64,000 bases of DNA. Origin: Burkholderiales bacterium (GTDB lineage: Bacteria > Pseudomonadota > Gammaproteobacteria > Burkholderiales > SG8-41). Under the pieces are notes generated by a model, which was not told the DNA's origin, did no database searches, and saw only the letters and a list, made by a program, of their open reading frames with translations. Within the stretch, counting starts at the first letter, position 1. Each line of letters starts with the position of its first letter. This document shows, one piece after another, positions 12,515 through 48,351 of this stretch. The position numbers and the translations under genes are program-made. The DNA lies in NCBI GenBank assembly GCA_026125585.1, contig JAHCLD010000001.1, positions 1,433 through 65,432 of the forward strand, in the 5' to 3' direction.

Positions 12515-12542
12515 GTAATGTAGGTACTGAGGAGCCCCCGGC

Positions 12543-15475: not shown

Positions 15476-15783
15476 GGGCGGAAAAAGCCTGATTATAAGT
15501 CGGGAGTCATCGGTCGGGAGTGCGGGCGCACCCGGAAGCAGACCCCGTTGCGACGACGGAAGTTCCTTGCTGCCGGGGCGGCCGGAATCGCGGCGGCGGA
15601 CTGTTGCGGGCGGACATGCGCGCGGCCGGTTCGCGCGCCGGCCGCGTTCGCGGATCATCGGGCGTGCATGCCGTCGCGCAGCGCCGGCCCGCCGCCGCAG
15701 CGCGCCGTGTTCTCGACGGCGGCAGGTAACCGCCCCGTGCTTCGATGCCTGCCGGCCTGGGCATGCGATCTCCCGCTAAAATT

Positions 15784-15820
15784 AAAAATATTGTTTAAAA
15801 ACAAATACTTATAATTCTCC
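15784..15820 (+). repeat. AT-rich box copy B
   Basis: aaaaatattgtttaaaaacaaatacttataattctcc, immediately upstream of the hsp20 sigma-32-type promoter. Confidence 0.8.
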
Positions 15821-15839
15821 TTTCGATGTGGCGCGCACT

Positions 15840-15868
15840 CTTGAAAACCATGCCGGGACACCCATATT
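15840..15868 (+). promoter_or_regulatory. sigma-32 (RpoH)-type heat-shock promoter
   Basis: CTTGAAA - 14 nt - CCCATATT matches the CTTGAAA-N13-15-CCCCATNT consensus. It lies 49 nt upstream of the hsp20 ATG. Confidence 0.65.
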
Positions 15869-15916
15869 CGAACCATCGGCGCAGCGTGCGCCGCAACGCA
15901 TTCAAGGAGATTGATC

Positions 15917-16345
15917 ATGGTCAATGTTACCCGTTTCACCCCGTTTGACGATTCGTTCGACGAGCTGCTGCGCGGTTTTTTCGTGCGCCCGATGGCTTTT
16001 GAAGGCGCGCCGCAGGCCGCGCAGGCGATCCGCGTCGATGTGCGCGAGAGCGAAAACGATTATGTCGTGCACGCCGAGATTCCCGGCGTGAAAAAGGAAG
16101 ACATCCACGTCACCATCGACGCCGAGCAGATCGCGATCAGCGCGGAGACGCGCAACGAACGCGAAATCAAGGAAGGCGAGCGCGTGCTGCGCGCCGAGCG
16201 CCACTACGGCAAGGTCTATCGCGCCTTCACGCTGGGCACCCCGGTGGATGAAGAGAAGGCGACCGCGAAATATTCGGACGGCGTGCTGGAGCTGACGCTG
16301 CCGAAAAAGGTGGCGGTCACCGCGAAACGCCTGTCCATCAACTGA
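15917..16345 (+). CDS. ibpA: small heat-shock protein (Hsp20/alpha-crystallin family)
   Basis: ATG at 15917 preceded by AAGGAG. Alpha-crystallin domain (DVRESENDYVVHAEIPGVKKEDI ... YSDGVLELTLPK). Confidence 0.9.
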   Translation: MVNVTRFTPFDDSFDELLRGFFVRPMAFEGAPQAAQAIRVDVRESENDYVVHAEIPGVKKEDIHVTIDAEQIAISAETRNEREIKEGERVLRAERHYGKVYRAFTLGTPVDEEKATAKYSDGVLELTLPKKVAVTAKRLSIN

Positions 16346-31346: not shown

Positions 31347-32573
31347 ATGCCGTTTTTCGCCTACAAGGGACGCAACGGCCGCGGCGAGGCCGTGCAGGGC
31401 GTGCTCGAAGGCGCCGACAGTGGCGCCATCGCCGGGCAGTTGTTCGGCCTCGGCATCACGCCGCTGGAGATCAAGTCGTCGGCGCCGCCGAAATCCGGTG
31501 GCGGCCTGAAATTCGGCTTCGGCAGGAAAAAAGTCACCCACACCGAGGTGCTGCTGTTCAGCCGGCAGATGTACACGCTGCTCAAGGCCGGCGTGCCGAT
31601 CATGGGGGCACTGAAGGGCCTCGAAGAGTCCACGTCCAATCCGCAGTTCGCCGAAGTCGTGCGCGACCTGCGCGAGAGCCTGGACACCGGGCGCGAGCTG
31701 TCGGTGTCGCTGGCGCGGCATCCCGAAGTGTTCAACCAGTTCTACACCTCGATGGTCAGCGTCGGCGAGCAGACCGGCCGGCTGGAGGAGGTGTTCCTGC
31801 GCCTGTTCCACCACCTCGAATTCGAGAAGTTCATGCGCGAGCAGGTGAAGTCGGCGATCCGCTATCCCAGCTTCGTGGTGGCGACGATGGCGATCGCGAT
31901 CGTGATCATCAACATTTTCGTGATCCCGGCCTTCGCCAAGGTCTATGCCGGCTTCAAGGCCGAACTGCCGCTGATGACCAAGGTGCTGATCGGATTCTCG
32001 AATTTCATGGTCGAGTACTGGCCGTACCTGCTGGGTGGCCTCGTCGTCGCGTTTTTCGGCGCGCGGGCCTGGGTCAACACCGCCGCCGGACGCATGACCT
32101 GGGACCGGCTGAAACTGCGCATCCCCATCGCCGGCGCGATCATCCAGAAGGCGACGCTGGCGCGCTTCGCGCGCAGCTTCTCGCTGGCCTTCCGCAGTGG
32201 CGTGCCGGTGACCAGCGGCCTCGGCATGGTCGCCAACACCGTGGAGAACGTCTACATCAGCGAGCGCATCGTGCGCATGCGCGAGGGCGTGGAACGCGGC
32301 GAGTCGGTGCTGCGCACGGCGCGCGATGCCGGCGTGTTCACGCCGGTGGTGCTGCAGATGATCGCCGTCGGCGAGGAATCGGGCGCGCTGGACGACCTGA
32401 CCGGGGAAATCGCCGACCTCTACCAGCGTGAGGTCGAGTACGACCTCAAGCACCTCAGCTCGCAGATCGAGCCGATCCTGATCGTGCTGCTCGGCATCCT
32501 GGTGCTGATCCTCGCGCTGGGCGTGTTCCTGCCGATCTGGGACCTGGGCACGGCCGCGACCGCCAAAAAATGA
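31347..32573 (+). CDS. mshG: type II/IV secretion platform protein (GspF family)
   Basis: 408 aa. Two GspF repeats and three TM segments. Directly follows the ATPase. Confidence 0.9.
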   Translation: MPFFAYKGRNGRGEAVQGVLEGADSGAIAGQLFGLGITPLEIKSSAPPKSGGGLKFGFGRKKVTHTEVLLFSRQMYTLLKAGVPIMGALKGLEESTSNPQFAEVVRDLRESLDTGRELSVSLARHPEVFNQFYTSMVSVGEQTGRLEEVFLRLFHHLEFEKFMREQVKSAIRYPSFVVATMAIAIVIINIFVIPAFAKVYAGFKAELPLMTKVLIGFSNFMVEYWPYLLGGLVVAFFGARAWVNTAAGRMTWDRLKLRIPIAGAIIQKATLARFARSFSLAFRSGVPVTSGLGMVANTVENVYISERIVRMREGVERGESVLRTARDAGVFTPVVLQMIAVGEESGALDDLTGEIADLYQREVEYDLKHLSSQIEPILIVLLGILVLILALGVFLPIWDLGTAATAKK

Positions 32574-32577
32574 CGGC

Positions 32578-33093
32578 ATGAGCCGGAACGGGAGACAGCG
32601 GCAGCGCGGCTTTTCGTTGCTGGAACTGGCGGTGGTCGCGGTGGTGCTGTCGGTGCTGCTCGGCGTTTTCCTCGAACGGCTGACGTTCTATCAGGAAGCG
32701 GCGGAGCGCGCGCGCTTCGAGGCCACGCTGCAGATCTACAAGACCGCCCTGCAGATCCGCCTCGCGGAACTGATCCTCGAACGCAGGGAAGGCGAGGCCC
32801 GCGCGCTGGAAGTCGAGAATCCGACACGCTGGCTGTCGGAAAGGCCGACAGATTACGGCGGGAGCTACCCGGCGCGGCCGGAGCCGGGCACCTGGTATTT
32901 CGAGGAGGGCACGCGGGAACTGGTATATGTCGCCAACTCGGCGCGGCGGCTGGCGGTGGAGCCGCGTAACGGCATGAAACAACTGCGTTTTGCGGTGAAA
33001 GTGGTCTATCAGGATGTGATTGTCAGCGGCCGGCCGATCCACAGCGTTGCGGGCATCGGCCTGCAACCCGCGGTGGCCTACCGATGGCCATGA
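32578..33093 (+). CDS. mshF: MshF-like protein with prepilin-type N-terminus
   Basis: [17 protein letters not shown] class III signal. Position after mshG. Confidence 0.6.
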
Positions 33094-33111
33094 CTGGGGC
33101 CAAAATTACCC

Positions 33112-33127
33112 TGGCACTACTTTTGCT
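33112..33127 (+). promoter_or_regulatory. sigma-54 promoter upstream of first pilin gene
   Basis: TGGCAC-TACTT-TTGCT, 43 nt upstream of the ATG at 33170. Confidence 0.75.
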
Positions 33128-33169
33128 GTATTATCAACAAGATGCTTCGTAATTCGTGAGAAAAATCAC

Positions 33170-33649
33170 ATGAACAAACGCTACCAGAACGGTTTCACGC
33201 TGATCGAACTGATCGTGGTGATCATCATTCTGGCGATCCTGGCGGCGACCGCGCTGCCGCGGTTTGCCAACCTGCAGGTGCAGGCGCGCATCGCCAAGCT
33301 GAACGGCGCGCTGGGTGCCATGAAAGGCGCTTCCGCGCTGGCCCACGCGGCCTGCCTCGCGACCACGCCGCAATGTACGACGCCTCTGGTGATGGAAGGG
33401 GTCAATGTGACGATGATCCATACTTATCCGACGGCGGATGCCGGAGGCATTGTCACCGCCGCAGGCATCAACGCAGGCCCGAATTCTGATGACGGCTACA
33501 ACACGGAACTCGGCGGTCCGGCGGCCGGCGCGACCCTGCGCATGATGGTCATGGGCAATAACCCGCAGACCTGCAGTTTCACGTATACGGCGCCGACGGC
33601 GCCCAATACGTCGCCGACGTTCAGCCCCTTGGACACGTCGGGCTGCTGA
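33170..33649 (+). CDS. mshB: type IV pilin (MshB position)
   Basis: [32 protein letters not shown]. Cys pairs and a C-terminal Cys. Confidence 0.8.
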
Positions 33650-33663
33650 AGCGTACACCATGC

Positions 33664-33679
33664 TGGCATGAAGGTTGCA
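33664..33679 (+). promoter_or_regulatory. sigma-54 promoter upstream of second pilin gene
   Basis: TGGCAT-GAAGG-TTGCA, 64 nt upstream of the ATG at 33743. Confidence 0.75.
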
Positions 33680-33742
33680 ACACGTTTTTTTGCAGGATTT
33701 TCCAAACCCGGTTTTAACAGACAGAAAGAGAAGGAGAGGACC

Positions 33743-34141
33743 ATGAAACAGCAGCGCGGTTTTACACTGGTGGAACTGATTGTCGTGATTGCCATTCTGG
33801 GTATTTTGGCGGCGACGGCGCTTCCGCGATTCATCGATGTCAGCACTCAGGCGAAATCCGCGGCCGCTGACGGCTTGGTCGGCGCCATCAATGGCGCGGT
33901 CGCGCTTTGCCAGGCGCAATGGGTTGCTGCGGGCAGCCTTGCCGCAGGCGGGTGCACCATGGGCGGCGGTGCGGTGACGGGAGTCAGCGGCATTCCGACC
34001 GCAGATGCGGCGGGTATTGGCGCGGCGATCAATGTCAGCGGGTTCACCCAGGCGGGAGCCGTGTTCTCGCTGACTGCGGATACAGACTGCCAAGTCACTT
34101 ACGCCACTGCCGCGCCCCACGCGACCAAAGCGGGCTGCTGA
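33743..34141 (+). CDS. mshA: type IV pilin, probable major subunit (MshA position)
   Basis: [45 protein letters not shown]. Followed by a terminator. Confidence 0.8.
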
Positions 34142-34194
34142 TCGAACCGGAGCCGGACAGGCGGATTCGTCTGTCCCGGCCCGGCTGTAAAACG

Positions 34195-34231
34195 GGGGGG
34201 CGTAGCGCCTTGCTACGCGCCCCGTTTTTTT
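34195..34231 (+). terminator. rho-independent terminator/attenuator after mshA
   Basis: gggg-g-gcgtagc / gcctt / gctacgc-g-cccc stem followed by T7. Sits inside the operon before the minor pilin genes. Confidence 0.65.
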
Positions 34232-34241
34232 GGGAGACGGC

Positions 34242-34691
34242 ATGGCCATGAAGACGGGGGGTTTCACGCTGGTGGAACTGGTGGTCACGATCGGGATACT
34301 CGCAATCGTTGCCGCAGTGGCTGCCCCTCGCTTTTTCCAGGCCAGTACTTTCCAGTCCCGCGGTTTTTACGACAAGTCGGCTGCGGTAATCCGGCTGGCC
34401 CAGAAAACCGCGATTGCCTGGCGGCGTCCGGTTTTCGTCTGCGTCACGGCGGCGCAGGTCAGTGCCGGCACCGCATCGGGCTGTGGCGTGACGCTGACCT
34501 ATCCGGTGAATGGCGCGGCGGCCGCGGAAAATTCGCCGCCGGGGGTCACGCTGAATGCGGTCGAATTCAGCTTTGACGGGCTGGGCCGTCCCAGTGCGGG
34601 CGCGAACATTGTGTTTACCAGCACCATTGCCGGCGATCCCGCCCGGCAGATCACGGTTGCCGCCGAAACCGGTTATGTCCTGGCCAACTGA
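34242..34691 (+). CDS. mshC: minor pilin (MshC position)
   Basis: MAMKTGG/FTLVELVVTIGILAIVAAVAAPRF. Confidence 0.7.
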   Translation: MAMKTGGFTLVELVVTIGILAIVAAVAAPRFFQASTFQSRGFYDKSAAVIRLAQKTAIAWRRPVFVCVTAAQVSAGTASGCGVTLTYPVNGAAAAENSPPGVTLNAVEFSFDGLGRPSAGANIVFTSTIAGDPARQITVAAETGYVLAN

Positions 34692-35280
34692 AACAGCGGC
34701 CTCCGGTCATGGCTTTGCCGCAGGCACCGGCAGGCGCATGCACGGTTTTTCGTTGGTGGAACTGGTGGTGTTCATTGCCATCATCAGTGTTGGCCTGGCC
34801 GGCATCCTCGGCGTGATGAATTTCACCACCCGCGCCAGCGCTGATCCGCTGGCACAGAAGCAGGCGCTGGCGATTGCCGAGGCCTATCTCGAGGAAGTGC
34901 TCGCGATGCCTTTTACCTATTGCGATCCGGACGACGCCAATGCGGCGACGGCGCAGAGTGTGTCGGGTTGTGCGACTCTGGTCGAGGGGCTCGGTCCGGA
35001 ATCTGGCGAGTTGCGTGGCAGCGGAACCAATCCGTACGACAACGTCAACGATTACAACGGCCTCGCCGGCGTGCCGGCGAACATCGACGGCACGGCCATC
35101 GGCGGGCTGGGCGCTTATCAGGTCGCCGTGGCCGTTGCGCCGGCGAACCTCGTGGCGAACACCGCGACGGTGCCCGCCGGCACCAGTCTGCGGGTGACGG
35201 TCACGGTCACCGGGCCGAACGGCGTGACCGCGGTCCTCGACGGCTATCGCACCCGTTATGCACCCAACGCGCTGCCCTGA
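34675..35280 (+). CDS. mshD: minor pilin (MshD position)
   Basis: Prepilin cleavage motif RRMHG/FSLVELVVFIAIISVG. Start ambiguous (34675 with a 24-aa leader, or 34738). Confidence 0.6.
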   Translation: MSWPTETAASGHGFAAGTGRRMHGFSLVELVVFIAIISVGLAGILGVMNFTTRASADPLAQKQALAIAEAYLEEVLAMPFTYCDPDDANAATAQSVSGCATLVEGLGPESGELRGSGTNPYDNVNDYNGLAGVPANIDGTAIGGLGAYQVAVAVAPANLVANTATVPAGTSLRVTVTVTGPNGVTAVLDGYRTRYAPNALP

Positions 35281-35286
35281 CCGCCG

Positions 35287-36090
35287 ATGAACGCGATGCG
35301 CAAAACCGGAGGCGTCACCCTGGTCGAACTGATCGTGGTGATCGCCATCACCTCGATCATCGCCGCGGTGGTCGCGGTGTTCATCCGCCGTCCGGTGGAG
35401 GGCTATGCCGACGCCGCGCGCCGCGCCGCGTTGACCGACGAGGCGGACACCGCGTTGCGGCGCATGACGCGCGATCTGCGGCTGGCGCTGCCGAACAGCG
35501 TGCGCGTGAATGGTGGCTTCGTCGAATACATCGAGACGACCGGCGGCGGGCGTTATCGCGCCGAGCCCAATGACCTGGGTGGTGGCAACGTCCTGGATTT
35601 CAGCGCGGCGGACACCGCATTCGACGTCATCGGTCCGGTGCCGCCGCTCGCCGCGGGCAACCATATCGTGGTGTACAACCTGTACAGCGGGGGCACGGTG
35701 TCGAATGCCTATTCCGGAGACAACCGGGCGGCGTTTACCAGTCTGGCCGGTTCCACTGTCAACATCGCATCGACGCTGTTTCCGGAACCGTCTCCGGCGA
35801 AACGCTTTCATGTCGTCAGCGGCCCGGTGACCTACGGCTGCGTTGGCGGGCAGCTCCTGCGTTACTGGGGCTACGCCTATAACGTTGCGCAGATCGCGCC
35901 GCCCACGGGCGGCAGCAGCGCAGTGCTGGCCGGCAATGTCGGCGAATGCCAGTTTGTCTACACGCCCGGCGCGCTGACCGAGCGCATCGCGACGGTATCC
36001 ATCATCCTGCAGATCGACAGCACGCCGGCGGCTGGCGGTCTCGAACGGATACGCATGTTCCAGCAGGCCCAGGTGGACAACGCGCCATGA
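35287..36090 (+). CDS. mshO: minor pilin-like protein (MshO position)
   Basis: [28 protein letters not shown]. Confidence 0.7.
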   Translation: MNAMRKTGGVTLVELIVVIAITSIIAAVVAVFIRRPVEGYADAARRAALTDEADTALRRMTRDLRLALPNSVRVNGGFVEYIETTGGGRYRAEPNDLGGGNVLDFSAADTAFDVIGPVPPLAAGNHIVVYNLYSGGTVSNAYSGDNRAAFTSLAGSTVNIASTLFPEPSPAKRFHVVSGPVTYGCVGGQLLRYWGYAYNVAQIAPPTGGSSAVLAGNVGECQFVYTPGALTERIATVSIILQIDSTPAAGGLERIRMFQQAQVDNAP

Positions 36091-36584
36091 AAATCAGGTC
36101 ACTCATCTCTGTCGCGCGCATGCGCGGTTTCAGCCTGGTGACCGGGATCTTCCTGCTGGTCGTGCTGTCGGCGCTGGGCGCGTTCATGGTGATGTTCACC
36201 GGCCTGCAGCAGAACACGGTCCAGGTCGATATCCTCGGCGTGCGCGCCTATTACGCGGCCCGTGCCGGACTGAACTGGGCGATGTACCGGGCGCTCGATC
36301 CCGATAATCCCAGCGCGACTGCGGCCGCCTGCCCCGTCGGCACGATCGCGCAGGGTGCCCTCGCCGGTTCGCTGGCGCCATTTTCGGTGACCGTGGAATG
36401 CGAGCCCTTCGATGCCACCGAAGCGAACCGGAACATCCGCGTGTACCGGATCACCGCAACCGCCTGCAATCAGGCGGTATGCCCCGGCACACCCGGCAAC
36501 GCCTACGTGGAGCGCCGCGTCGTCTCGACGCTGGCGAAGTGCAAGGATCCCTCGGCGCCATCGCCTTTCGAGTGTGGATTGTGA
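36087..36584 (+). CDS. mshP: pilin-like protein lacking Glu5 (MshP position)
   Basis: ATGA overlap with mshO. ARMRG/FSLVTGIFLLVVLSALGAFMV. Confidence 0.6.
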   Translation: MKIRSLISVARMRGFSLVTGIFLLVVLSALGAFMVMFTGLQQNTVQVDILGVRAYYAARAGLNWAMYRALDPDNPSATAAACPVGTIAQGALAGSLAPFSVTVECEPFDATEANRNIRVYRITATACNQAVCPGTPGNAYVERRVVSTLAKCKDPSAPSPFECGL

Positions 36585-36621
36585 AAATATTAAATAAAAA
36601 CAAATATTTATATAAATCTCC
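36583..36621 (+). repeat. AT-rich box copy C
   Basis: gaaaatattaaataaaaacaaatatttatataaatctcc. Begins inside the mshP stop codon. Confidence 0.8.
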
Positions 36622-36769
36622 TGGACGGTGTGGACCGCACCCGATCCTGCGACCCGGGAGAACGCTGATCGATGCTCGCGGATTGATCGCGGCCGGATGA
36701 ACCCTTGGCGACCTGCGATGGATGGGCATGGCAGGTCACCCGGACAGCAGACGGATTTCGACACATGCC

Positions 36770-37867
36770 ATGTTGAATCACCGAAAAATACCGCATTCTG
36801 GATATAAGCCGGATTGCCTTGAGCAGGTGGCCGGCATTTTCCGTGCTGGCATCCGGCTCGTATTGCCGTTTCTGGTGTGGGCGCTGTGTTCCACGCCGGC
36901 CTGGGCGCAGTGCACCAACTGCACGACGACCACGGTGGGCGGCGACACAGTCCACACGTTCATCGCGAACGGCACGTTCACGCCGCCGCCCGGTATCACC
37001 GCCGTGCGATATCTGGTGGTCGGTGGTGGCGGCGGCGGCGGCGGCGTCTTTAACGATACGAATGTTGGTGGTGCCGGTGGTGGCGGCGCGGGCGGCTACC
37101 AAGCTGGTACTGGGTTCACGGTCACTCCTGGGACGCCTTATGCCATTACCGTTGGTACCGGCGGGACCGCTGGCGTCGGCAACACGAGCCAAGGCGGGAG
37201 CGGCGGTTCTTCGATTTTCTCGACGATTACGGCGCAAGGCGGTGGTGGCGGCGGATCGGCCGGTGTCAGCAACAACGGTGTCAACGGCGCATCCGGTGGC
37301 GGCGGGCGTGTTGGCATTGCGGGTGGGACTGGGGTTGCCGGGCAGGGCAATAGCGGCGGTAGCGGCTATGCTTCGGGTGGCGCGGGCGGCGGCGGCGGCG
37401 CGGGTGGTGGCGGCGCCAACAGCGGCGGCACTGCGGGCGGCGGCGGCGGTAACGGTACCGCCAACGACATTACGGGTACGAACCTGACCTATGCAGGTGG
37501 CGGCGGTGGTGGTGGCTACGGGGCGACGGGTGGCGCGGGCGGTGGCGGCGTTGGTGGCGCGGGTGCCGGCACGCCGCGGGCTGCCGGTTCGCCGGGAATG
37601 GCAGGCCGCGGCATGCGGCGGCGTCGGGCAGTGCCGCCGAGCGGCGCGGCGCAGTGGTGTGGCGACTCGGGCGTGTCGTCGTGCGGTGAGCGCCTGTCGG
37701 GCGCTTTGCGGTTGCCACGGGTAACTGGAATGCGACCAGTACTTGGAGCGCTACCGGTTGCGGCGGTGCGGCCGGCGCGTCGGTGCCTGCGGCAGGAAGC
37801 GATGTCACGATTTGCAACACGCGCACGGTTACGCTTAACGCGAATACTACGAGCCTTGCCAGCCTGA
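36770..37867 (+). CDS. secreted poly-glycine-domain protein (3' part after about 37570 looks out of frame; possibly the N-terminal module of the following MshQ-like gene)
   Basis: Signal peptide ...LVLPFLVWALCSTPAWA/QC. GTFTPPPGITAVRYLVVGGGGGGGG followed by ~180 aa of G-rich repeats. The tail becomes Arg-rich (RGMRRRRAVPP...). Confidence 0.5.
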   Translation: MLNHRKIPHSGYKPDCLEQVAGIFRAGIRLVLPFLVWALCSTPAWAQCTNCTTTTVGGDTVHTFIANGTFTPPPGITAVRYLVVGGGGGGGGVFNDTNVGGAGGGGAGGYQAGTGFTVTPGTPYAITVGTGGTAGVGNTSQGGSGGSSIFSTITAQGGGGGGSAGVSNNGVNGASGGGGRVGIAGGTGVAGQGNSGGSGYASGGAGGGGGAGGGGANSGGTAGGGGGNGTANDITGTNLTYAGGGGGGGYGATGGAGGGGVGGAGAGTPRAAGSPGMAGRGMRRRRAVPPSGAAQWCGDSGVSSCGERLSGALRLPRVTGMRPVLGALPVAAVRPARRCLRQEAMSRFATRARLRLTRILRALPA

Positions 37868-40800
37868 CGATTCAGAACGGCGGCACGCTCAGCGTCGGCA
37901 ACAACAACACCGCCCGCACGATGACGATCACGGGCGATATCACCAACGCCGGTACCTTTCAGGTTGCCACCTCTTCCAATACCACGCATACGCTTAACGT
38001 TGGTGGTGACGTCGCCAACAGCGGCACGTTCAATCTGGCGACCGACGGCAACAGTCTGATGACTACCACCTGGACCGGGGGCGGTACGCACAACATTACC
38101 GGCACCGGGGCGATGACGTTCCACAATGTCACGGCGAACAATAACCTCGTCGTCAATAAGAGCGCGGGCACGATTACCCAGTCGGGGACGCTGACAGTCA
38201 ACGGCAATCTTACCGTCCAGGCAGGCACGCTGAACTTGGCCAACACCACGAGCGTGACGGGGGCGACCAGCATCAGCGGAACCCTGGGTCATACGACGAC
38301 GACAGGAACGCGGACGTTTACCGGCGCGGTGACGATCAACAATGGGGGCACCTGGGACAACACCGCCAACGAAGCGGTAACGATGGCGGACGATCTCATC
38401 AACAATGGCACCTTCAATTCCGGGACCGCCGCTTATACGTTTTCGGGGGCGGGTCAATGGGGCGGCAGCCAGCCGATTTCCTTCGGCGGCGCGGTCAACG
38501 TGACCGCCGGCGCGCGTGTGAACAACACGACGGTGACGGTGGCCGGTGCGCTGGCGTTGTCCGCCAACGTGACGCTGACCAATAACTCGACGGTCAGCGT
38601 GACCGGCGCCATCACCGGCGCCAACGCAACTACTTCAGTCTGGACAAACACCGCGAACTCCACGCTGAATGCCGGAGGGGCGCTGCTGACCACCGGCACG
38701 CTCAATGCCTCGGCCGGCGGCAACACGGTGCATTACAACGGTGCGGGCAACGTGGCCGTAAAGCTGCCTTCCGGCGGGAACTACTTCCATCTGACCCTCT
38801 CGACCGGTGGCACGAAGACGCCTGCGGCCGGTACCTACAACATCGGCGGCAACCTGACGATCAACGCCGGCCCGACTTTCAACGTGAACACGAGCGACCC
38901 GACGATCAATGTCGCGGGCAACGTCACGATCGCCGGGACTTATACCGCGAGCAACATCGCCGGCAGCCCGCTGACCATTGGCGGCGACATGACCATCAGC
39001 GGAACTTATACCGGCAACACGGCGCCGGTGAACCTGGCCGGGAATTTCACCGGTTCTGGAACCTTCACATCCGGCGCGGGCTTGTTCACGCTGAACGGGA
39101 CGGGCGCGCAGGTCATCGGCGGAACCGTTTCCCCGACGTTCACCAACCTCGCCGTCAACTCCGCCGGGGTCGCCCTGTCCGGCGTCAACGTCACCGTCGG
39201 CACGCTGCTGACGCTGACCAGCGGCGTCGTGACCACCGGCGCCAATGTCGTGGCCGTGACCGCTAACTGTCCGGGCAGCGTGTCGCGCGCGGCGGGTCAC
39301 ATCGCCGGTTTTCTGCGCCTGCGCATCCCGACCGGATCGCCGACCTGCCTGTTCCCCGTCGGCGATGCCGCCGGCTATCGGCCGGTCACGATCGCCTTCA
39401 CCACCGTGACCAACACCGGAACCCGCGACGTCACCGCCTCCGTCACGCAGGCCGCGGGCGAACATCCGAACATCGGCACTTCCACCATCGAGCCGATGCT
39501 CAACGTCAACCGCTATTGGACGCTGGCCAACAACACGACCTCGTTCACGTCCGCCGTGGCCACGTTCGCCTACGTTGCCGGCGACGCCGACACCGGGACC
39601 GACCAGACGCTGTTCATCGCCGGGCGCCATGCCTCGGGCACGTGGACCTATCCGTCGAGCAGCGCCAGCGCCGGCAGCGTGCAGGTTTCCGGGCTGGCCA
39701 CCGCCACGTTGGCGGGGGATTACGTGCTCGGCGAAACCGTGCCGGTGCTGTTCTCCCACTGGCGCATGGATCAGCCCGGCGGCTGGAACGGCGCGGCGAA
39801 CGAAGTGACTGACAGCGGCAGCGGCGGCTTCCACGGTGTCGCCGCCGGCCTGACCACGCGGCCGACGACCTCGGCCGCGAGTCCGGCGATCGCGGGTGAT
39901 CCCGGCACCTGCCAGTACGGCGTGTTCAACCGCTCGAACAAGGATTACGTCGCATTGCCTGCCGGATATCCCAATCTGATGTCGACGGCGGGCGGTTTCA
40001 CCGTGACGGCCTGGATCAACACGACCAACAGCGCATTGCCGGGGCAGCGCATATTCATCGACGACCAGAACAATACATCGCCCGGTGGCTGGGGATTCAG
40101 CGTGGGTGAAACAGACCGCGCCGGTGCCGGCGGGCTGCGCTTCTATTATCGGCAACCGACGGTGGTAACCGTTGATACTGTGGCGATTCCCAGCAACCAG
40201 TGGCTGTTTGTCGCCTTGACCGTGAACGTGGCTGCGGGCGCGAATGCAAGCCGCGCCACGCTGTATGCCTACAACACGGCCGGCGCGCTGGTGACGACGT
40301 ACACCCAGACTTTTACCTGGACGGCGGGTTCGGACGCCGGCCCCCCGTCGATCGGCGGCGAAACCAATGCCGCAGGCGAAAATACCGATGCCTTCGGTTT
40401 CAGCGGCAGCATCGACGAAGTGCGCGTCTACCAGCAGGCGCTGAGCCAGGGCCGCATCGAGCTGATCCGCCAGGATGCGCGCCCCTGCAATTTCCTGAAT
40501 CACATCCGCATCGAGCACGACGGGCTGGGGCTGACCTGCGCGCCGGAAACGGTGACCGTGAAGGCCTGCACCGACGCGCTCTGCACTAGCACCTACACCG
40601 GCAGCGTCACCACCACGCTGTCGCCGACCGGCTGGGTGGGCGGCAACACCATCACCTTCACCGGAACGGCCAATGTCGACTTGCGCCGGACCGCGCCGGG
40701 AATCGTCACGCTGGGCGCCGGCACCACATCGCCGCCGCCGACCTCGATCACGCGCTGTTTCAACGGCCTGCTCGAAACCTGCGACCTCGATTTCAGGAAC

Positions 40801-42570
40801 ACCGGTTTCCTGTTCAGCGCGATTCCTTCGCAGATCGCCGGCACCGTTTCGGCGACCCACACCGTGCAGGCGGTGCGCACCGACAACAACACCGGCGTGT
40901 GCACCGGCGTGTTCACCGGCAACGTGCCGAACATCGAACTGGCTTCTGAGTGTGTGAATCCGGGCGCCTGCCAGGCCGGGCAGCAGGTCACCTTCAACAA
41001 CAACGGGTCCGGCACCATCGCGGCGAACAACAGCGCCGCGGTGAACACCTGGACCACGCGCACGCTGACCTTCGGCGCCAACTCGACCGCCAGCTTCACC
41101 TTTGCCTATCCCGACGTCGGCGCGATCCGGTTGCACGCGCGCCACAACATCAACGGCTCGGGCGATTACATGACCGGCGCGTCCTCGAACGTGGTGGTCA
41201 GGCCCGCCGGCTTCACGGTCGGCAACATCCGCCGGGCTTCCGACAACGTCGCCAATCCCGGCGCGGCCAATGCCGGCGGCGCCGTGTTCATGAAGGCCGG
41301 CGAGAACATCGCGCTGACGGTGACCGCGGTGAACTCGCTGGGCGCCGCGACGCCCAATTTCGGCAAGGAAACGCCCGCGGAAGGCGCGCTGCTCGATTCG
41401 GCCCTGGTCGGCGGTCTCGGGCTGACCGCCAATCCCGGTCTCGGCAACAACCTGATCGCCGGCAGCGCGTTCACGGCGGGGGCCGCTGCGGTAAGCAACG
41501 TGACCTGGGGCGAGGTCGGCATCATCACCATCACGCCACGCCTCGGCGATGGCGATTACCTGGGGGCCGGCGACGTCATCGGCACGACGAGCGGCAACGT
41601 CGGCCGCTTCACGCCGCACAATTTCGCGGTGAGCGGCAACGCGCCGTCGTTCGTTCCGGCCTGTTCCGCCGGCGGATTCACCTACATCGGCCAGCCGTTC
41701 GCCTACGGCGTGGCGCCGGTGCTGACGGTCACCGCGCGCAACCTTGCCGGCGGAACGACCCAGAACTACAAGGGCCCGTTTTTCAAGATCACCAATGCCA
41801 GCCTCACCGGCAAGGCCTACACGGCGGCGACCGGAACGCTGGACGTCAGCGGCATCACGGGCGCCGATCCGGCGATCGCCGACAACAGCGACGGCACGGC
41901 GACCCTGACCTTCAATTCGGGCACCGGTCTCCTGTTCACGCGCTCGACGCCGGTTACGCCCTTCGATGCCGACATCTCGCTGGCGATCAACGTGATCGAT
42001 ACCGACAGTGTTGTCTACACCGCCAATCCGGCGCGTTTCGGACAGGCTGCCGCGGGCGACGGCATTGCATTCACCGGCGGCAAGGCCATGCGCTTCGGCC
42101 GGCTTCGTCTCGGCGGCGCCAGCGGCTCGCAACTCCTGCCGCTGCGCGTGCCGTTCGAAGCGCAGTACTGGTCGGGCGCGTTTTTCGAGACCAATACCGC
42201 GGATACCTGCTCCACGTTCGCGCCCGGCAATGTCGGCCTGGGCAACTTCATCGGCAACCTCAACGCCGGCGAGACCACGGTGACCGCGATCACCAGTCCG
42301 TTGCAGGGCGGACGCGGTTCGATCAGGCTCAGCGCGCCCGGCGCGGCGAACAATGGCAGCGTGGATGTCTCGCTGAACCTCGGCACCGGCGCCGCGGCCG
42401 ATGCCTGCCCGGCGTTCGCGCCGGCGGCAACGGCCGGCAACAGGGCCTATCTGCGGGGAAACTGGTGCGCGCCGCCCGGCGCGCATACCAGGGATCCCGC
42501 GGCCCGGGCGCGTTTCGGCATCCTGCGCGGCAGCGAGGAGACGATCTATATCCGCGAGACGGTGAACTGA
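37783..42570 (+). CDS. mshQ: giant MshQ-like pilus-associated protein 1 (beta-helix-like repeats, LamG domain about 39745-40488, MshQ-type C-terminal region)
   Basis: 1595 aa from the first in-frame start (GTG). The frame is already open and homologous from 37690. LamG hallmark SIDEVRVYQQALS. The C-terminal ~450 aa are closely paralogous to the next gene. Confidence 0.8.
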   Translation: MPAAGSDVTICNTRTVTLNANTTSLASLTIQNGGTLSVGNNNTARTMTITGDITNAGTFQVATSSNTTHTLNVGGDVANSGTFNLATDGNSLMTTTWTGGGTHNITGTGAMTFHNVTANNNLVVNKSAGTITQSGTLTVNGNLTVQAGTLNLANTTSVTGATSISGTLGHTTTTGTRTFTGAVTINNGGTWDNTANEAVTMADDLINNGTFNSGTAAYTFSGAGQWGGSQPISFGGAVNVTAGARVNNTTVTVAGALALSANVTLTNNSTVSVTGAITGANATTSVWTNTANSTLNAGGALLTTGTLNASAGGNTVHYNGAGNVAVKLPSGGNYFHLTLSTGGTKTPAAGTYNIGGNLTINAGPTFNVNTSDPTINVAGNVTIAGTYTASNIAGSPLTIGGDMTISGTYTGNTAPVNLAGNFTGSGTFTSGAGLFTLNGTGAQVIGGTVSPTFTNLAVNSAGVALSGVNVTVGTLLTLTSGVVTTGANVVAVTANCPGSVSRAAGHIAGFLRLRIPTGSPTCLFPVGDAAGYRPVTIAFTTVTNTGTRDVTASVTQAAGEHPNIGTSTIEPMLNVNRYWTLANNTTSFTSAVATFAYVAGDADTGTDQTLFIAGRHASGTWTYPSSSASAGSVQVSGLATATLAGDYVLGETVPVLFSHWRMDQPGGWNGAANEVTDSGSGGFHGVAAGLTTRPTTSAASPAIAGDPGTCQYGVFNRSNKDYVALPAGYPNLMSTAGGFTVTAWINTTNSALPGQRIFIDDQNNTSPGGWGFSVGETDRAGAGGLRFYYRQPTVVTVDTVAIPSNQWLFVALTVNVAAGANASRATLYAYNTAGALVTTYTQTFTWTAGSDAGPPSIGGETNAAGENTDAFGFSGSIDEVRVYQQALSQGRIELIRQDARPCNFLNHIRIEHDGLGLTCAPETVTVKACTDALCTSTYTGSVTTTLSPTGWVGGNTITFTGTANVDLRRTAPGIVTLGAGTTSPPPTSITRCFNGLLETCDLDFRNTGFLFSAIPSQIAGTVSATHTVQAVRTDNNTGVCTGVFTGNVPNIELASECVNPGACQAGQQVTFNNNGSGTIAANNSAAVNTWTTRTLTFGANSTASFTFAYPDVGAIRLHARHNINGSGDYMTGASSNVVVRPAGFTVGNIRRASDNVANPGAANAGGAVFMKAGENIALTVTAVNSLGAATPNFGKETPAEGALLDSALVGGLGLTANPGLGNNLIAGSAFTAGAAAVSNVTWGEVGIITITPRLGDGDYLGAGDVIGTTSGNVGRFTPHNFAVSGNAPSFVPACSAGGFTYIGQPFAYGVAPVLTVTARNLAGGTTQNYKGPFFKITNASLTGKAYTAATGTLDVSGITGADPAIADNSDGTATLTFNSGTGLLFTRSTPVTPFDADISLAINVIDTDSVVYTANPARFGQAAAGDGIAFTGGKAMRFGRLRLGGASGSQLLPLRVPFEAQYWSGAFFETNTADTCSTFAPGNVGLGNFIGNLNAGETTVTAITSPLQGGRGSIRLSAPGAANNGSVDVSLNLGTGAAADACPAFAPAATAGNRAYLRGNWCAPPGAHTRDPAARARFGILRGSEETIYIRETVN

Positions 42571-42723: not shown

Positions 42724-45700
42724 ATGGTATCTGCAGCTCAAAGCTGCCCAAGCTTTATGAACATGAAAATGCTTGCTGCTCGGAATGATTCGGAAGGCCG
42801 GACCGGCGAACGCGGCTTGGCTGCGTGCTTTCTGTTTCTGTTGTTCGCGGCGATGCTGGTCTTCGGCTTGGCCGGAGCGAACGACGTGCGGGCGGCGGCG
42901 CCGACGTTTCAGGCGGCGGGCACGCAGCAGAGCGGCACGGGCAATGTCACCGTGCCGTGGCCTGCGCACGTGGCGGGTGATGTCGCGCTGCTCTTCATCG
43001 AGAGCACGGGAGGACAGGCGGCCAATCTCGGGACCGCCAATGGATTCGTTGCGGTTGCCAACAGTCCCCAGAATACGGGCACCGGCACAAACGGGACGCG
43101 ACTGACCGTGTACTGGGCGCGTGCCACGTCGGCTGCCATGGCTTCTCCGGTGGTGACCGATCCGGGCAATCACGTCTATGCCCGCATCCTGACCTATCGT
43201 GGCGTCATCGGTGCTGGCAATCCGTGGGACGTGACCGGTGGTGGCGTCAAGGCCACAGCCAGCACTTCAGTCACGGTGACGGGTGTGACGACAACGGTGC
43301 CGGATACGCTGATTGTGCAGGCCGTGGCGCGCGACAACGATTCGGCAGCGGCGGCATTCGGTACCCCGACCAATGCCAATCTGACAGGAATCACCGAACG
43401 CTCTGATGCGGGCACGACCTCGGGCAATGGCGGCGGTATCGGCATCTGGGATGGCGTCAAAGCAACTGCGGGTGCGACCGGAAACACGACTGCCACGGTA
43501 ACCAGCTCCATCAACGCATTCCTGACCATCGCGCTCAGGCCGCCACCGCCGAACTATTACAGCCGCAACGGCGGCGGCAACTGGTCGGCGACCGCGACCT
43601 GGAGCAACACGGCGTGTAACGGCGCGGCAGGCGCGACGATCCCGCATGCCGACGCGACGGTCACCATCTGCAACAACGACACGGTCACGCTGAACCAGAA
43701 TGCGACCATTGCCGAGTTGATCGTGGGCAGCGGGAACAACAATTCCACACTGACGCATACGGGGAGCAATGCGCTGACGACCGGCGGTGTCACGTTCAAC
43801 CGGGGCACCGGCGGCACCAAGGCCTGGAACGTCAACGCCGGCAGTGCAACGGTCAACGGCAACGTGGTGATGGGCAGTTGGACCAACGGCATTGCGCGGA
43901 TCCAGTTGACCAGCGGCACGCTGGACATCAACGGCGACCTGGGTTTCTTCAACAACACGCTGGGGCAGGCCGTCATCGATGCCAGTGGCGGCGCGGCAAA
44001 CATCTTCCTGTCCGGCGCGATGACCGATCTCGGCAATGCCCAGATCCTGCCGGGCACGGCCAGCACCTTCACCTACGACGGTGGCAACCAGAGCGTGTGG
44101 CTGGGCGTCGGCGGCATCAGTTACTACAACCTGACGCTCGCCGGCAGCGGCACCAAGCAGCAGCAGTACGGCGGCGCGGCCACGGTCGGCGGCGCGACGA
44201 CTGTCAATGCCGGCGTGACGTTCACCAACTCCGGGGCCGTCACTTTTTCCGGGGCCTTCGTCAACAACGGCACGACCAACGCCAGCCAGACCAACGATTA
44301 CCAGGGCAGCTTCACCAACGCCGGTACCTATACCAGCAGCGCCGGCGGCGGGCAGAACTACCGCGGCAATTTCAGCAACAGCGGCACGTTCAATGCGGGC
44401 AGCGCGCAGCACCGCTTCAACGGCAGCGCGCTGCAGACGCTGACGGGCGCGACCACCTTCCAGAACCTGGAAGTGAACAACAGCGCGGGGCTGGTCATCA
44501 ACAGCAACGTGACGGTGACGACGCAGGCGACACTGACCGGCGGCGTGGTCACGACCGGCGCCAACGTGTTCATCGTGCAGCAGACGACCTGGAGCGGGGT
44601 GAGCCGCGGCAGCGGCTATATCAACGGCAATCTGCGCCTGCGCATGCCGACCGGCGGCACGTCGCGCGTGTTCGACGTCGGCGGCGCGAACGGCTATCGT
44701 CCGGTGACGGTGGCGTTCGCCAATATCACCACGCAGGGCGATCTGACCGTTTCGGTCAGCGACCCCGGCGGCGATCATCCGGATATCGGTGCCTCCTCGA
44801 TCGATCCGGCAAAAAGCGTCAATCGCTGGTGGACGCTGACCAACGGCGGCATCGCGTTCAGCGGCAATTACAGCGTCGTCTTCAATTACCTGGCGGGCGA
44901 TATCGACGGCGGTGCCAATCCCGCGCAGTTCAACATCCAGCGTTTCAGCGGCGGGACTTGGAACGATGTCACGACCGGCAACCGCACCGGCACCAGCATC
45001 GAGGGCACGGGGCTGAGCGCCTTCGGCGCGTTCGCCATCGGGCAGCGCCTGATCCTGACCACCTGTCCCGCCGGCGGAGAGCTGATTCCCGGACTGTTCG
45101 GCTCGTACTACAACGTCACCGGCGGCTTCCCGCCGGCGCGCCCCTCGGGATTGCCGAACGGCACGCGCGCCGACGGCCCGGTGGACTTCAACTGGGCCGC
45201 CGCCGCGCCCGGCGTGAGCGGCATCGGTGCCAACCAGTTTTCGGTACGCTGGGACGGCTACATCTATGTCACGGTCAGCGGCAACTACCAGTTCCAGACC
45301 GAGTCGGACGACGGCGTGCGGCTGTGGGTCAACGACATGACGACGCCGGTGATCGACAACTGGACCGACCATTCCGCGGCTACGGACACCAGCGCCAACG
45401 TGGCATTGACGGCGGGACAGTTCTACCCGATCCGGCTGGAGTTCTACGAGAACGGCGGCGACGCGGTCATCCGCCTGCGCTGGCGCTTGCCCAGCAGCGG
45501 TTCCTATGTCGCGATTCCCGCGGGCCCGGTGCCGACGCCGGGGGCGGGGCTGTACCACTGCAGCGAGCAGCAGGTCCCGGGCCTGCTGGCGCATTACGCC
45601 ATGGACGAAGCCGCGTGGAACGGCACGACCGGCGAAGTCAAGGATGCGAGCGGCAACAACCGCCACGGCACCGCGCTCGCGCCCAACGGGCCGGCCACGG

Positions 45701-48351
45701 CCAACACGGCGCCCGCGCGCCCGGGCAATCCCGGCACCTGCGGCTATGGCGTGTTCGACGGCAGCAACGATTACGTCACCGTGCCGAATCTGCAGACGAT
45801 CCTCGGCGGCACGGCGAGCCTCGCGTTCTGGATCCGGACGACGCAGGGCGGCAACAACACGGCCTGGGAGGCGCCGGGCGTGACCGGCGTGGAGGAGAGC
45901 GGCGGCGGCAACGACGTGTTCTGGGGATTCCTGCGCGGCAACGGCCGCATCGCGATCCAGAAGGGGAACGGCGCTTACGCGGAATCGGCGGCGGCGGTCA
46001 ACAACGGCAACTGGCAGCACGTGGTGCTGACACGCAATGCCACGAGCGGCGCGGTGCAGGTGTATCTGAACGGCAGCCTGTCCGGCTCCGCGACCGGCGA
46101 GACGGGCACGGTGACCACGGCGTTCTCGAGCATCGGGCGGATCGAGGACACCGGCGGCACGCCCATGTACTTCAACGGCCAGATCGACGAGATGCGTGTT
46201 TACGACCGTGTGCTGACCACCGCCGAGGTTGCCGTCGTTTACGATCTCAAGCGTCCCTGCGACGTGGAGGCCCTCGACCATATCCGCATCACACACGGCA
46301 GCGGCAGCGGCCTGACCTGCAATCCGTCGACGCTGACGATCCGCGCCTGCGCGAATGCCGATTGCACGATCGAATACACGGGCGGCGTGGCCGGATCGCT
46401 GACCGCGACCGGCGCGACGACGAACTTTGCGGGCGGCGCTGGTTTTGCGATTGCCTCGGGTTTGGGGGCCGTCACCAAGGACATCCAGGTGACGGCGACG
46501 CCCAGCGCGATGATCGGCGCGACCAGCATCAGTCCAGCACCGGTCAACCCGGTGGCCTGCAATTTTGGCACGCCCGCCTGCACCTTCACGGCGGCGGATT
46601 CGGGTTTCGTGTTCGACGTGCCGGATCATGTGTCGGACACGATCCAGAGTTCCATTACCATCTCCGCCGTGCGCAAGGACGATACGAGCCAGCGCTGCGT
46701 GCCGGCATTCCAGAGCACGACCAAGACGGTCGGTTTCTGGTCGAACTACCTGAATCCGGCCACCGGTTCGCTCGCGGTCAGCGTCAATGGCAACAACATT
46801 TCCGGAACCAGTCCCGGAACCGGCATGAATCTGAACTTCAACGCCTCCGGCGAGGCGACGATACAGGTGCGGTATCTCGACGTCGGCCGGATGCGGCTGC
46901 ACGCGCGCCACGACGGTTCGGGTATCGCCGGGGGGCTGGTGATGCTGGGGCAGGATGAATTCGTCAGCAAACCCGCAGGCTTCGTGATTTCGGGCATACA
47001 GAGAACCGCCGACAGTTTCGCCAATCCGGCGGCGGCCAATGCCGCCGGCGCGGTGTTCATCCGCGCCGGCGAAAACATCACGCTGACCGTGACTGCGCGC
47101 AATGCCAGCAACAACGCGACGCCCAACTTCGGCAGGGAGTCGCCCGCGGAAGGCGTGCAACTGACATCCGCGCTGGTCGGCGGGCTCGGGCTCAGCGCCA
47201 ATCCCGCGCTTGGCAATGGCCTGATCGCGGGCGCCGCGTTTACCGCCGGATCGGCTACGGCGACCAACGTGACCTGGGGCGAGGTCGGCATCATCACCCT
47301 CACGCCGCACCTCGGCGACGGCGATTACCTCGGTACCGGCGACGTCATCGGCACGGCGAGCGGCAATGTCGGGCGTTTCATCCCGCACAATTTCGCGGTT
47401 GCGTTCAACGATCCGGCGTTCGCGACGGCCTGCACCGCGGGCGGATTCACCTATGTCGGACAGCCTTTCGTTTACGCCACGGGGATGTCGCCGGTGCTGA
47501 CGGCCACCGCGCGCAATCTTGCCGGGGGGACGACGCTGAATTACCGGGGCACTTCGCCGGCGTCCCAGGCGTTTTTCAAGATCACCAACGGCTCGCTGAC
47601 CGGCAAGGCATATTCCGCGGCCAGCGGCACGCTCGATGTCAGCGGAATCACCGGGACGGACCCCGTCATCGTGGACAACGGCAACGGCACGGCGACCCTG
47701 ACGTTCAACTCCGGCAGCGGGCTGGCGTTCACGCGCGGCAATCCCGTGTCGCCGTTCGATGCCGAAATTTCGCTGGCCATCAACGTGCTCGATACCGACG
47801 GTGTCGCGTATTCGTCGAATCCGGCGAGATTCGGACAGGCCAGCGCCGGCAACGGCATCGATTTTCCGGACGGAAAGGCCATGCGTTACGGCCGTGTGCG
47901 GCTGACGGGCGCCAGCGGATCGCAGGTGTTGCCGCTCCGGGTGCCTTTCGAGGCCCAGTACTGGACAGGCACGTTCTTTGCAACGAACACCCTCGATACC
48001 TGTACAACACTGAGCGCAGGCAACGTGGGCATGGGCAATTACATCGGCAACCTGAACGCAGGCGAAACCACCGTGACATCGATCACGGCGCTATCCGCGG
48101 GACGCGGCACCATCGTCCTGGGAGCGCCCGGAGCGGGCAACAACGGCAGCGTCGATCTTGCCTTCAACCTCGGCGATGGCACAGTTGCTGCGGCCTGCCC
48201 GTCTTTTGCGCCGAATGCCGGCGCGGGCAACCTGCCGTGGCTGCGCGGCCAGTGGTGTGGCGCCGCCCATGACCGGGATCCGTCGGCCAGAGCGCGCTTC
48301 GGCATACGCGGCGGCGGCGACGAGCGGATTTATATACGTGAAAATTATTAA
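42724..48351 (+). CDS. mshQ: giant MshQ-like pilus-associated protein 2 (novel N-terminal module, beta-helix-like repeats, PA14 domain about 45091-45525, LamG about 45583-46250, MshQ-type C-terminal region)
   Basis: 1875 aa. PA14-like GLFGSYYNV...FSVRWDGYIYV...YQFQTESDDGVRLWVND...YPIRLEFYENGG. LamG hallmark QIDEMRVYDRVLT. Start could also be 42757/42763. Confidence 0.8.
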   Translation: MVSAAQSCPSFMNMKMLAARNDSEGRTGERGLAACFLFLLFAAMLVFGLAGANDVRAAAPTFQAAGTQQSGTGNVTVPWPAHVAGDVALLFIESTGGQAANLGTANGFVAVANSPQNTGTGTNGTRLTVYWARATSAAMASPVVTDPGNHVYARILTYRGVIGAGNPWDVTGGGVKATASTSVTVTGVTTTVPDTLIVQAVARDNDSAAAAFGTPTNANLTGITERSDAGTTSGNGGGIGIWDGVKATAGATGNTTATVTSSINAFLTIALRPPPPNYYSRNGGGNWSATATWSNTACNGAAGATIPHADATVTICNNDTVTLNQNATIAELIVGSGNNNSTLTHTGSNALTTGGVTFNRGTGGTKAWNVNAGSATVNGNVVMGSWTNGIARIQLTSGTLDINGDLGFFNNTLGQAVIDASGGAANIFLSGAMTDLGNAQILPGTASTFTYDGGNQSVWLGVGGISYYNLTLAGSGTKQQQYGGAATVGGATTVNAGVTFTNSGAVTFSGAFVNNGTTNASQTNDYQGSFTNAGTYTSSAGGGQNYRGNFSNSGTFNAGSAQHRFNGSALQTLTGATTFQNLEVNNSAGLVINSNVTVTTQATLTGGVVTTGANVFIVQQTTWSGVSRGSGYINGNLRLRMPTGGTSRVFDVGGANGYRPVTVAFANITTQGDLTVSVSDPGGDHPDIGASSIDPAKSVNRWWTLTNGGIAFSGNYSVVFNYLAGDIDGGANPAQFNIQRFSGGTWNDVTTGNRTGTSIEGTGLSAFGAFAIGQRLILTTCPAGGELIPGLFGSYYNVTGGFPPARPSGLPNGTRADGPVDFNWAAAAPGVSGIGANQFSVRWDGYIYVTVSGNYQFQTESDDGVRLWVNDMTTPVIDNWTDHSAATDTSANVALTAGQFYPIRLEFYENGGDAVIRLRWRLPSSGSYVAIPAGPVPTPGAGLYHCSEQQVPGLLAHYAMDEAAWNGTTGEVKDASGNNRHGTALAPNGPATANTAPARPGNPGTCGYGVFDGSNDYVTVPNLQTILGGTASLAFWIRTTQGGNNTAWEAPGVTGVEESGGGNDVFWGFLRGNGRIAIQKGNGAYAESAAAVNNGNWQHVVLTRNATSGAVQVYLNGSLSGSATGETGTVTTAFSSIGRIEDTGGTPMYFNGQIDEMRVYDRVLTTAEVAVVYDLKRPCDVEALDHIRITHGSGSGLTCNPSTLTIRACANADCTIEYTGGVAGSLTATGATTNFAGGAGFAIASGLGAVTKDIQVTATPSAMIGATSISPAPVNPVACNFGTPACTFTAADSGFVFDVPDHVSDTIQSSITISAVRKDDTSQRCVPAFQSTTKTVGFWSNYLNPATGSLAVSVNGNNISGTSPGTGMNLNFNASGEATIQVRYLDVGRMRLHARHDGSGIAGGLVMLGQDEFVSKPAGFVISGIQRTADSFANPAAANAAGAVFIRAGENITLTVTARNASNNATPNFGRESPAEGVQLTSALVGGLGLSANPALGNGLIAGAAFTAGSATATNVTWGEVGIITLTPHLGDGDYLGTGDVIGTASGNVGRFIPHNFAVAFNDPAFATACTAGGFTYVGQPFVYATGMSPVLTATARNLAGGTTLNYRGTSPASQAFFKITNGSLTGKAYSAASGTLDVSGITGTDPVIVDNGNGTATLTFNSGSGLAFTRGNPVSPFDAEISLAINVLDTDGVAYSSNPARFGQASAGNGIDFPDGKAMRYGRVRLTGASGSQVLPLRVPFEAQYWTGTFFATNTLDTCTTLSAGNVGMGNYIGNLNAGETTVTSITALSAGRGTIVLGAPGAGNNGSVDLAFNLGDGTVAAACPSFAPNAGAGNLPWLRGQWCGAAHDRDPSARARFGIRGGGDERIYIRENY

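Follow-up and report, generated by a model that had tools for sequence, protein, structure and literature searches.

Two overlapping reading frames of an mshQ-like pilus gene as the halves of one 1,919-residue gene, parted by a short damaged patch that is probably an assembly error

Contig JAHCLD010000001.1 of the Burkholderiales bacterium assembly GCA_026125585.1 carries, behind a set of type IV pilus genes, a long coding region that is read in two overlapping frames, which raises the question of whether two genes or one broken gene lie there and, if it is one, whether the break belongs to the organism or to the deposited sequence. We analysed 64,000 nucleotides of this contig (the window; GC, that is, guanine plus cytosine content, 66%), in which the two open reading frames (ORFs) are the following.

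36722-37867, plus strand: the mechanically called 'poly-Gly ORF', frame A (position mod 3 = 2), 381 residues
37690-42570, plus strand: frame B (position mod 3 = 1), called MshQ-like 1, open from right behind the TGA at 37687-37689

A preliminary description of this DNA had read both frames as a single gene of about 1930 residues. Our comparison shows that they are the halves of one gene of 1,919 residues (window 36827-42570). The short patch between them is probably a local consensus or assembly error, with no biological lesion and an intact protein encoded by the organism.

The evidence that carries this answer comes from a sister metagenome-assembled genome (MAG). A search with the frame-B protein led to P0121 (MCW5574493.1; 1,595 residues, 100% identical), and the second member of the 90% cluster of P0121 is P0240 (MBX3665093.1, KF834_05365), a hypothetical protein of 1,919 residues whose gene lies at 4584-10343 of contig JAHCAH010000018.1 (L003) in the Burkholderiales bacterium MAG GCA_019635025.1. 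L003 and window positions 32244-52569 share 96.7% nucleotide identity across 20.3 kb. P0240 is unbroken: it opens with MAGIFRAGIRLVLPFLVWALCSTPAWAQCTNCTTTTVGG..., passes through the Gly-rich domain and ...SPGMAGRGGGGGGASGSAAASGAFNGGVGGSGIVVVRYTTPVGRFAVATGNWNATSTWSATGCGG..., and then runs into a C-terminus that matches the window protein, the order of its parts being putative signal peptide, Gly_rich_2, the "GRFAVATGNWNATSTW" junction, a G8-like beta-helix, LamG and DUF6701 (MshQ). The GTG at window position 36827 matches the start of the L003 gene at 4584 (GTG in both), and when the patch alone was swapped for the L003 bases, an ORF of 5,760 nucleotides resulted, which runs from GTG 36827 to 42570 and encodes 1,919 residues, 1,895 of them (98.7%) identical to P0240. 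MBX3665093.1 and the window gene thus have locus, neighbours, start codon, putative signal peptide and domain order in common, whereas the former is a single uninterrupted ORF and the window is short by 16 nucleotides and carries 10 substitutions in the 95 nucleotides for residues 263-294. The single gene that had been proposed is therefore present as one uninterrupted ORF of 1,919 residues in the sister MAG, and not as the two separate genes that would have spoken against it. Synonymous divergence (dS) from the sister MAG was 0.113 in 36827-37612 and 0.056 in 37692-42570, that is, twofold higher in the Gly-rich part. With this comparison, the locus can be divided as follows.

36827-37612, plus strand: intact 5' part in frame A, with the GTG start, the putative signal peptide and Gly_rich_2 up to ...SPGMAGRG; 262 codons, no internal stop
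37613-37691, plus strand: damaged patch, 79 nucleotides as against 95 in L003 (5370-5464) in the DNA alignment
37613-37867, plus strand: out-of-frame tail of the poly-Gly ORF (MRRRRAVPP...RILRALPA), which is not real protein sequence and overlaps frame B
37687-37689, plus strand: TGA that stops frame B where GIVVVRY has its conserved Tyr codon
37692-42570, plus strand: intact 3' part in frame B, with the GRFAVATGNWNATSTWS junction motif, the G8-like beta-helix, Laminin_G_3, DUF6701 and the stop

The reading frames at the break agree with this division. The first possible start in frame B is GTG 37783, and the 31 residues encoded upstream of any start codon (37690-37782), APVGRFAVATGNWNATSTWSATGCGGAAGAS, are homologous to YYSRNGGGNWSATATWSNTACNGAAGAT, which begins at residue 278 of MshQ-like 2, the product of the tandem paralogue directly downstream; the same stretch also aligns with this motif in many homologues. 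Both the opening of the MshQ-like 1 frame from 37690, with conserved coding sequence ahead of GTG 37783, and the match inside MshQ-like 2 had been pointed out in the preliminary description, and the sequence and the homologue alignment bear them out. The tail of the poly-Gly ORF at 37613-37867 aligned with no homologue in the homologue alignment, and it reads MRRRR in frame A where another frame encodes Gly-rich sequence. That this ORF turns into out-of-frame, Arg-rich sequence and overlaps frame B up to 37867 had been recognised correctly, but the onset near 37570 has to be corrected, as the break starts at 37613: frame-A coding is genuine up to 37612, about 40 nucleotides beyond the earlier limit, and its ...GTPRAAGSPGMAGRG is identical in the intact orthologue. 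The true gene start is GTG 36827 (MAGIFRAG...), not ATG 36722.

The domain architecture likewise joins the two frames. The gene starts with a putative signal peptide, MAGIFRAGIRLVLPFLVWALCSTPAWA followed by QCTNC, which has n-, h- and c-regions and an AxA site as judged by eye, and which is in the product only when both frames are joined. In Pfam, the frame-A product matches Gly_rich_2 (PF21722) over residues 84-296 (profile 4-220 of 226, E = 1e-14, 55 bits), and the frame-B product matches G8, DUF5649, Laminin_G_3 and full-length DUF6701 (PF20419; profile 2-577 of 577, E = 2.5e-123), the last being full-length in P0240 as well. The C-terminus of the window protein is a short segment, ...IYIRETVN. 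In the intact P0240, Gly_rich_2 covers residues 47-292 (profile 2-225 of 226, 69 bits) and ends at Y292 of GIVVVRY, and G8 begins at residue 322. The counterpart of the patch in the intact protein is residues 263-294 (GGGGGASGSAAASGAFNGGVGGSGIVVVRYTT), which lie at the C-terminal end of Gly_rich_2; because the Gly_rich_2 match ends at Tyr292 and G8 starts at 322, the patch costs the last 30 or so residues of the Gly-rich domain and not a linker. In the deposited window sequence, the domain is therefore present in a truncated form that falls short of the whole profile, the terminal G-S-G-(I/V)-V-V-(I/V)-R-Y strand being lost in the patch.

The damage within the patch is dense and runs in one direction. 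Compared with L003, there are 11 gap events, all of them deletions in the window (1, 1, 5, 2, 1, 1, 1, 1, 1, 1 and 1 nucleotides, 16 in total), together with 10 substitutions, so that the patch has lost about 17% of its bases and gained none, with about 10% substituted, and it is bordered by 86 (left) and 105 (right) perfectly identical bases. The whole 20-kb alignment holds 43 gap events; at the rate of the remainder of the alignment, 0.12 would be expected in 79 nucleotides, as against the 11 observed (Poisson P ~3e-18), and the single direction of all 11 gives P = 0.001 in a sign test. Gaps outside the patch cancel locally, like ordinary alignment noise in diverged coding stretches, with the exceptions of a 2-nucleotide intergenic insertion at 42686 and an in-frame 3-nucleotide deletion at 43505. 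As the running total of deleted bases grows, the correct frame along the patch becomes A, B, C, B, A, B, C, A, B, C, A and B, which is why fragments of the true protein are found in all three frames (ASGSAA in B, SGAAQWCGDSGV in A, VVVR in B) and why MRRRR in frame A stands opposite a Gly-rich reading in another frame. The earlier suspicion that more than one shift may be needed was thus well founded, since the 11 small deletions change the frame 11 times. At the stop, the sister MAG has CGG TAT ACG ACG CCT and the window has CGG TGA GCG CCT. The patch is collinear with the sister sequence, that is, it is a degraded copy of the orthologous bases, and this rules out a foreign origin. No ectopic gene-conversion donor was found elsewhere in the window, where no match exceeded 17 nucleotides, and the DNA pattern of the junction, at either patch length, had no exact match in JGI metagenome contigs or in GTDB species-representative genomes.

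Several explanations compete for this pattern. Two separate genes, one for a small Gly-rich secreted protein and the other for an MshQ-like protein with its start at GTG 37783, would agree with the NCBI annotation, which calls the 1,595-residue protein from this GTG. However, 93 nucleotides of conserved coding sequence without a start codon lie upstream of it, the 1,595-residue product has no signal peptide although its relatives have either one or an N-terminal module bearing one, the tail of the 381-residue ORF is out-of-frame nonsense, and the orthologue P0240 in L003 is one gene; we therefore give this explanation almost no weight, less than any other. Hardly more credible is a regulated on/off switch, which could act through slipped-strand phase variation in a simple repeat or through programmed ribosomal frameshifting that joins the frames. 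Surface and pilus adhesins are often phase-variable, and the region does hold short GGC repeats, but the repeat periods of 3, 9, 12 and 18 (Tandem Repeats Finder, 36700-38000) preserve the frame, the weak arrays of period 8, 10 and 16 (2-3 copies) cannot account for how the alleles differ, and these differences are scattered deletions and substitutions, not gains or losses of repeat units. The 11 frame changes, together with the in-frame TGA in place of a conserved Tyr, are more than one ribosomal slip can bridge, and the intact 141-nucleotide region, folded as DNA, showed nothing unusual in structure (z = 0.21). Of the three causes that the preliminary description had offered, slippage-based switching thus falls away, because of its repeat periods and because the alleles are not repeat-unit changes; assembly error is the best supported, and recent pseudogenisation is a possible but less likely cause.

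The reasons why we consider an error in the consensus or assembly probable are as follows. A deletion-only burst with perfect flanks looks like unpolished or low-quality consensus, and the short patch, its identical flanks, the one-directional indels and the hard-to-assemble sequence are together what an artefact would leave. The same strain has been assembled independently (L108; GCA_026125425.1, JAHCLC010000231.1); this second assembly matches the window at 32451-36915 with 1 mismatch and no gaps in 4,465 nucleotides, and its contig stops at 36915, just past the part coding for the signal peptide and 113 nucleotides short of the first poly-Gly run; the strain is also found in SRA run SRR12908354 (Logan). 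The patch falls in low-complexity sequence, within the most GC-rich 200 nucleotides of the sampled 37000-38000 (GC 0.79-0.81), and because of this composition and the contig end at 36915, the tract can be taken as hard to assemble. We infer that GC content may have caused a gap in short-read coverage, which would have been bridged with long-read or low-quality sequence. The remainder of the gene is sound: outside the patch, the 5.7-kb gene contains no other stop or unbalanced indel, and the ratio of nonsynonymous to synonymous substitution rates (dN/dS) between the window and L003 is 0.13 in the 5' part and 0.085 in the 3' part, or about 0.09 for everything outside the patch. Since dN/dS is low and no further lesion occurs in 5.7 kb, the gene is under selection now or was so until very recently; a decaying pseudogene would have a dN/dS near 1 and lesions along its length, and neither is seen here. 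Twelve of the 13 genes common to the window and L003 are intact (98.8-100% amino-acid identity), and ten ORFs elsewhere in the window have full-length Pfam domains, so apart from the patch the assembly looks clean. Alternatively, the sequence may be correct and the gene may be a very recent pseudogene made by a single complex mutation, such as error-prone repair synthesis across the GC-rich tract, in a strain that relies on MshQ-like 2. In favour of this, the lesion stands in the deposited sequence, the frame cannot be recovered across 11 frame changes and a TGA, a redundant intact paralogue lies directly downstream, N-terminal modules at this locus turn over fast (compared with L002, the closest syntenic relative, the cassette has been exchanged, and between the window and L003 the N-terminus of MshQ-like 2 is hypervariable), and the low dN/dS elsewhere would fit a very recent event. 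Against it, 11 micro-deletions in the same direction within 79 nucleotides, between flawless flanks and in 5.7 kb that are otherwise undamaged, are unlike gradual decay; real divergence elsewhere in the locus, which reaches 34 differences per 100 nucleotides in the N-terminal module of MshQ-like 2, keeps the frame; and to our knowledge, no common bacterial mutational process yields such a deletion-only shower. We therefore hold a very recent pseudogene to be possible but rather unlikely. Some points nevertheless weigh against an artefact. The patch may be right as deposited, as the comparison is one of assembled sequences only; the window shows no other error-like indels relative to L108 or L003, so that a long-read origin lacks independent support; the transition to transversion ratio within the patch, 7:3, is like that of real divergence and does not discriminate; and the intact tandem paralogue could make the loss of the broken gene tolerable. 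It seems to us doubtful, though worth stating, that the patch is real and that a single, confined burst of deleted and substituted bases at the GC-rich end of the Gly_rich_2 module has only recently inactivated one member of the tandem pair of modular MshQ tip-adhesin paralogues here, the sister strain having kept its copy. If true, the presence or absence of pilus-tip adhesin modules would vary naturally through an unusual clustered mutational process, and the locus would modestly illustrate how a strain can lose one of its two pilus-tip adhesin paralogues.

The matter is mostly one of annotation quality. The public call MCW5574493.1 (1,595 residues) has its start, GTG 37783, within conserved coding sequence and omits conserved residues and any signal peptide; the product annotated in this way cannot be the functional one. 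No protein-database match to the upstream Gly-rich ORF of the window turned up, and in the public record this ORF was probably either passed over or marked as a pseudogene. At near-identity, the Gly-rich N-terminus has no separate protein-database cluster and is represented by P0240 alone, inside the P0121 cluster. Look-ups of the exact products of the three large ORFs of the window and of P0121 found nothing on record, and nothing relevant was found in the literature on the assembly, locus-tag, protein and run accessions. What the public record should list is a gene of about 1,919 residues, given as intact or marked as frameshifted. Public databases already contain the intact orthologue and the architecture that joins Gly_rich_2 to MshQ, and a frameshifted or mis-assembled copy of a gene in a MAG is ordinary; the surroundings, where tandem MshQ-like genes have N-terminal modules that are swapped or hypervariable among close relatives, are mildly interesting. 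The neighbouring features are given below.

32578-36584, plus strand: seven pilin or minor-pilin-like genes of an msh-type type IV pilus cluster, all intact and 1:1 with L003 (98.8-100% amino-acid identity)
42724-48351, plus strand: MshQ-like 2, the intact tandem paralogue, with a different N-terminal module, the junction motif, beta-helix, PA14, LamG and DUF6701

According to the gene tables of L002 and L003, the pilin genes are preceded by genes for a T2SSE/MshEN ATPase and a T2SSF protein, and the order in both syntenic loci is MshEN/T2SSE, T2SSF, N_methyl pilins, the mshQ-like gene and, further downstream, a secretin; the window is collinear with both. Homologues are named "MSHA biogenesis protein MshQ" in JGI. 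Window 36827-42570 encodes a presumably secreted protein of the MshQ family that, by analogy with Vibrio MshQ, is probably a PilY1/PilC-like pilus-tip adhesin, in which the conserved DUF6701 C-terminus would anchor the protein on the minor-pilin tip complex and the variable N-terminal modules (Gly_rich_2, beta-helix, LamG) would contact substrates. A recent study, drawing on synteny and AlphaFold models, proposes that Vibrio MshQ is functionally homologous to the PilC/PilY1 tip adhesins and that its extreme C-terminus docks on MshP, a PilK-like minor pilin, by beta-strand complementation (PMC12918778).

The two mshQ-like genes are diverged tandem paralogues with a common DUF6701 end, and their C-terminal 1.3 kb (window 41251-42551 and 47009-48324) are about 76% identical in DNA, as seen via cross-matches to L003. 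The 5' end of the first gene is a replaced cassette between the window (36587-38118) and L002 (8001-8507): upstream, DNA homology to L002 (84%) breaks off at 36615, and downstream it picks up again at 38118 (about 81%). L002 lacks a Gly-rich module, its signal peptide being followed at once by the RFA..TW..TWS motif, and an AT-rich remnant of the ancestral start region can be seen in aaATATTAAATAAAAACAAATATTTATATAAAT of the window and aaATGAATAAAAACAAACACTTATGTAAC of L002. MshQ-like 2 is intact and in frame in both MAGs. Its N-terminal module (window 42920-43520) has 21-34 differences per 100 nucleotides between the sister MAGs, with balanced indels and the frame kept, whereas the rest of the locus is 97-100% identical; judged from these sequences, this hypervariability suggests recombination or diversifying selection on the MshQ-like 2 N-terminus. 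No Pfam family matches this module (APTFQAAG...), which is also present in P0125, P0008 and P0010. In L003, where MshQ-like 2 occupies 10495-16125, the stored call begins at 10909 (1,738 residues), and the frame is open, and homologous to the window protein, from ATG 10495 (1,876 residues), so the stored start was probably placed too late.

Proteins that link a Gly-rich module to an MshQ end are found in other metagenomes as single ORFs, namely P0132 (2,070 residues; MshQ in JGI), P0136 (2,073), P0138 (2,146), P0135 (2,276) and P0181 (1,874). They begin with a signal peptide, (A/S)(Q/E)CT..C(T/A)TT(T/V)V(G/S) and Gly_rich_2 and end with the beta-helix and DUF6701, and their junction, ...GGSG(I/V)V(V/I)(V/I)RY-x(3-7)-R(F/Y)A(I/V)A.GNWNATSTWS..., is also that of the joined window gene; however, they share only 32-49% identity with the query (best local BLASTP alignment), contain the extra middle domains PA14/GLEYA and DUF2341, and are not orthologues. 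The shorter relatives P0001-P0005 also link Gly_rich_2 to the MshQ C-terminal region. Protein-guided locus searches of JGI metagenomes and GTDB representatives gave only distant relatives (27-78% identity), mostly from Bacteroidota and other phyla, which have the GNWNATSTW/beta-helix start and none of which informs the junction. P0122, from L002 in another metagenome, is closer: it shares the operon order, 84% nucleotide identity over the pilus operon and 81% amino-acid identity across the beta-helix, LamG and DUF6701, but it is without Gly_rich_2, its signal peptide running straight into PRFARTTNTWAATTWS. Among known systems, Neisseria pilC is a phase-variable pilus adhesin gene with a poly-G tract in its signal-peptide region. 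There, as in the window, the frame of a pilus-tip adhesin gene shifts close to its 5' end and the signal peptide is parted from the body of the protein, whereas the window has no homopolymer or out-of-frame repeat tract, and its alleles differ by 11 scattered deletions and substitutions instead of one repeat unit. Like the window gene, the gene for Vibrio cholerae MshQ of the MSHA type IVa pilus encodes a large protein and directly follows minor-pilin genes (mshDOP-like) in an msh-type cluster with an MshEN-domain ATPase; the Vibrio protein has about 1,200 residues, whereas the window has two tandem paralogues, of 1,919 and 1,875 residues, with added N-terminal modules.

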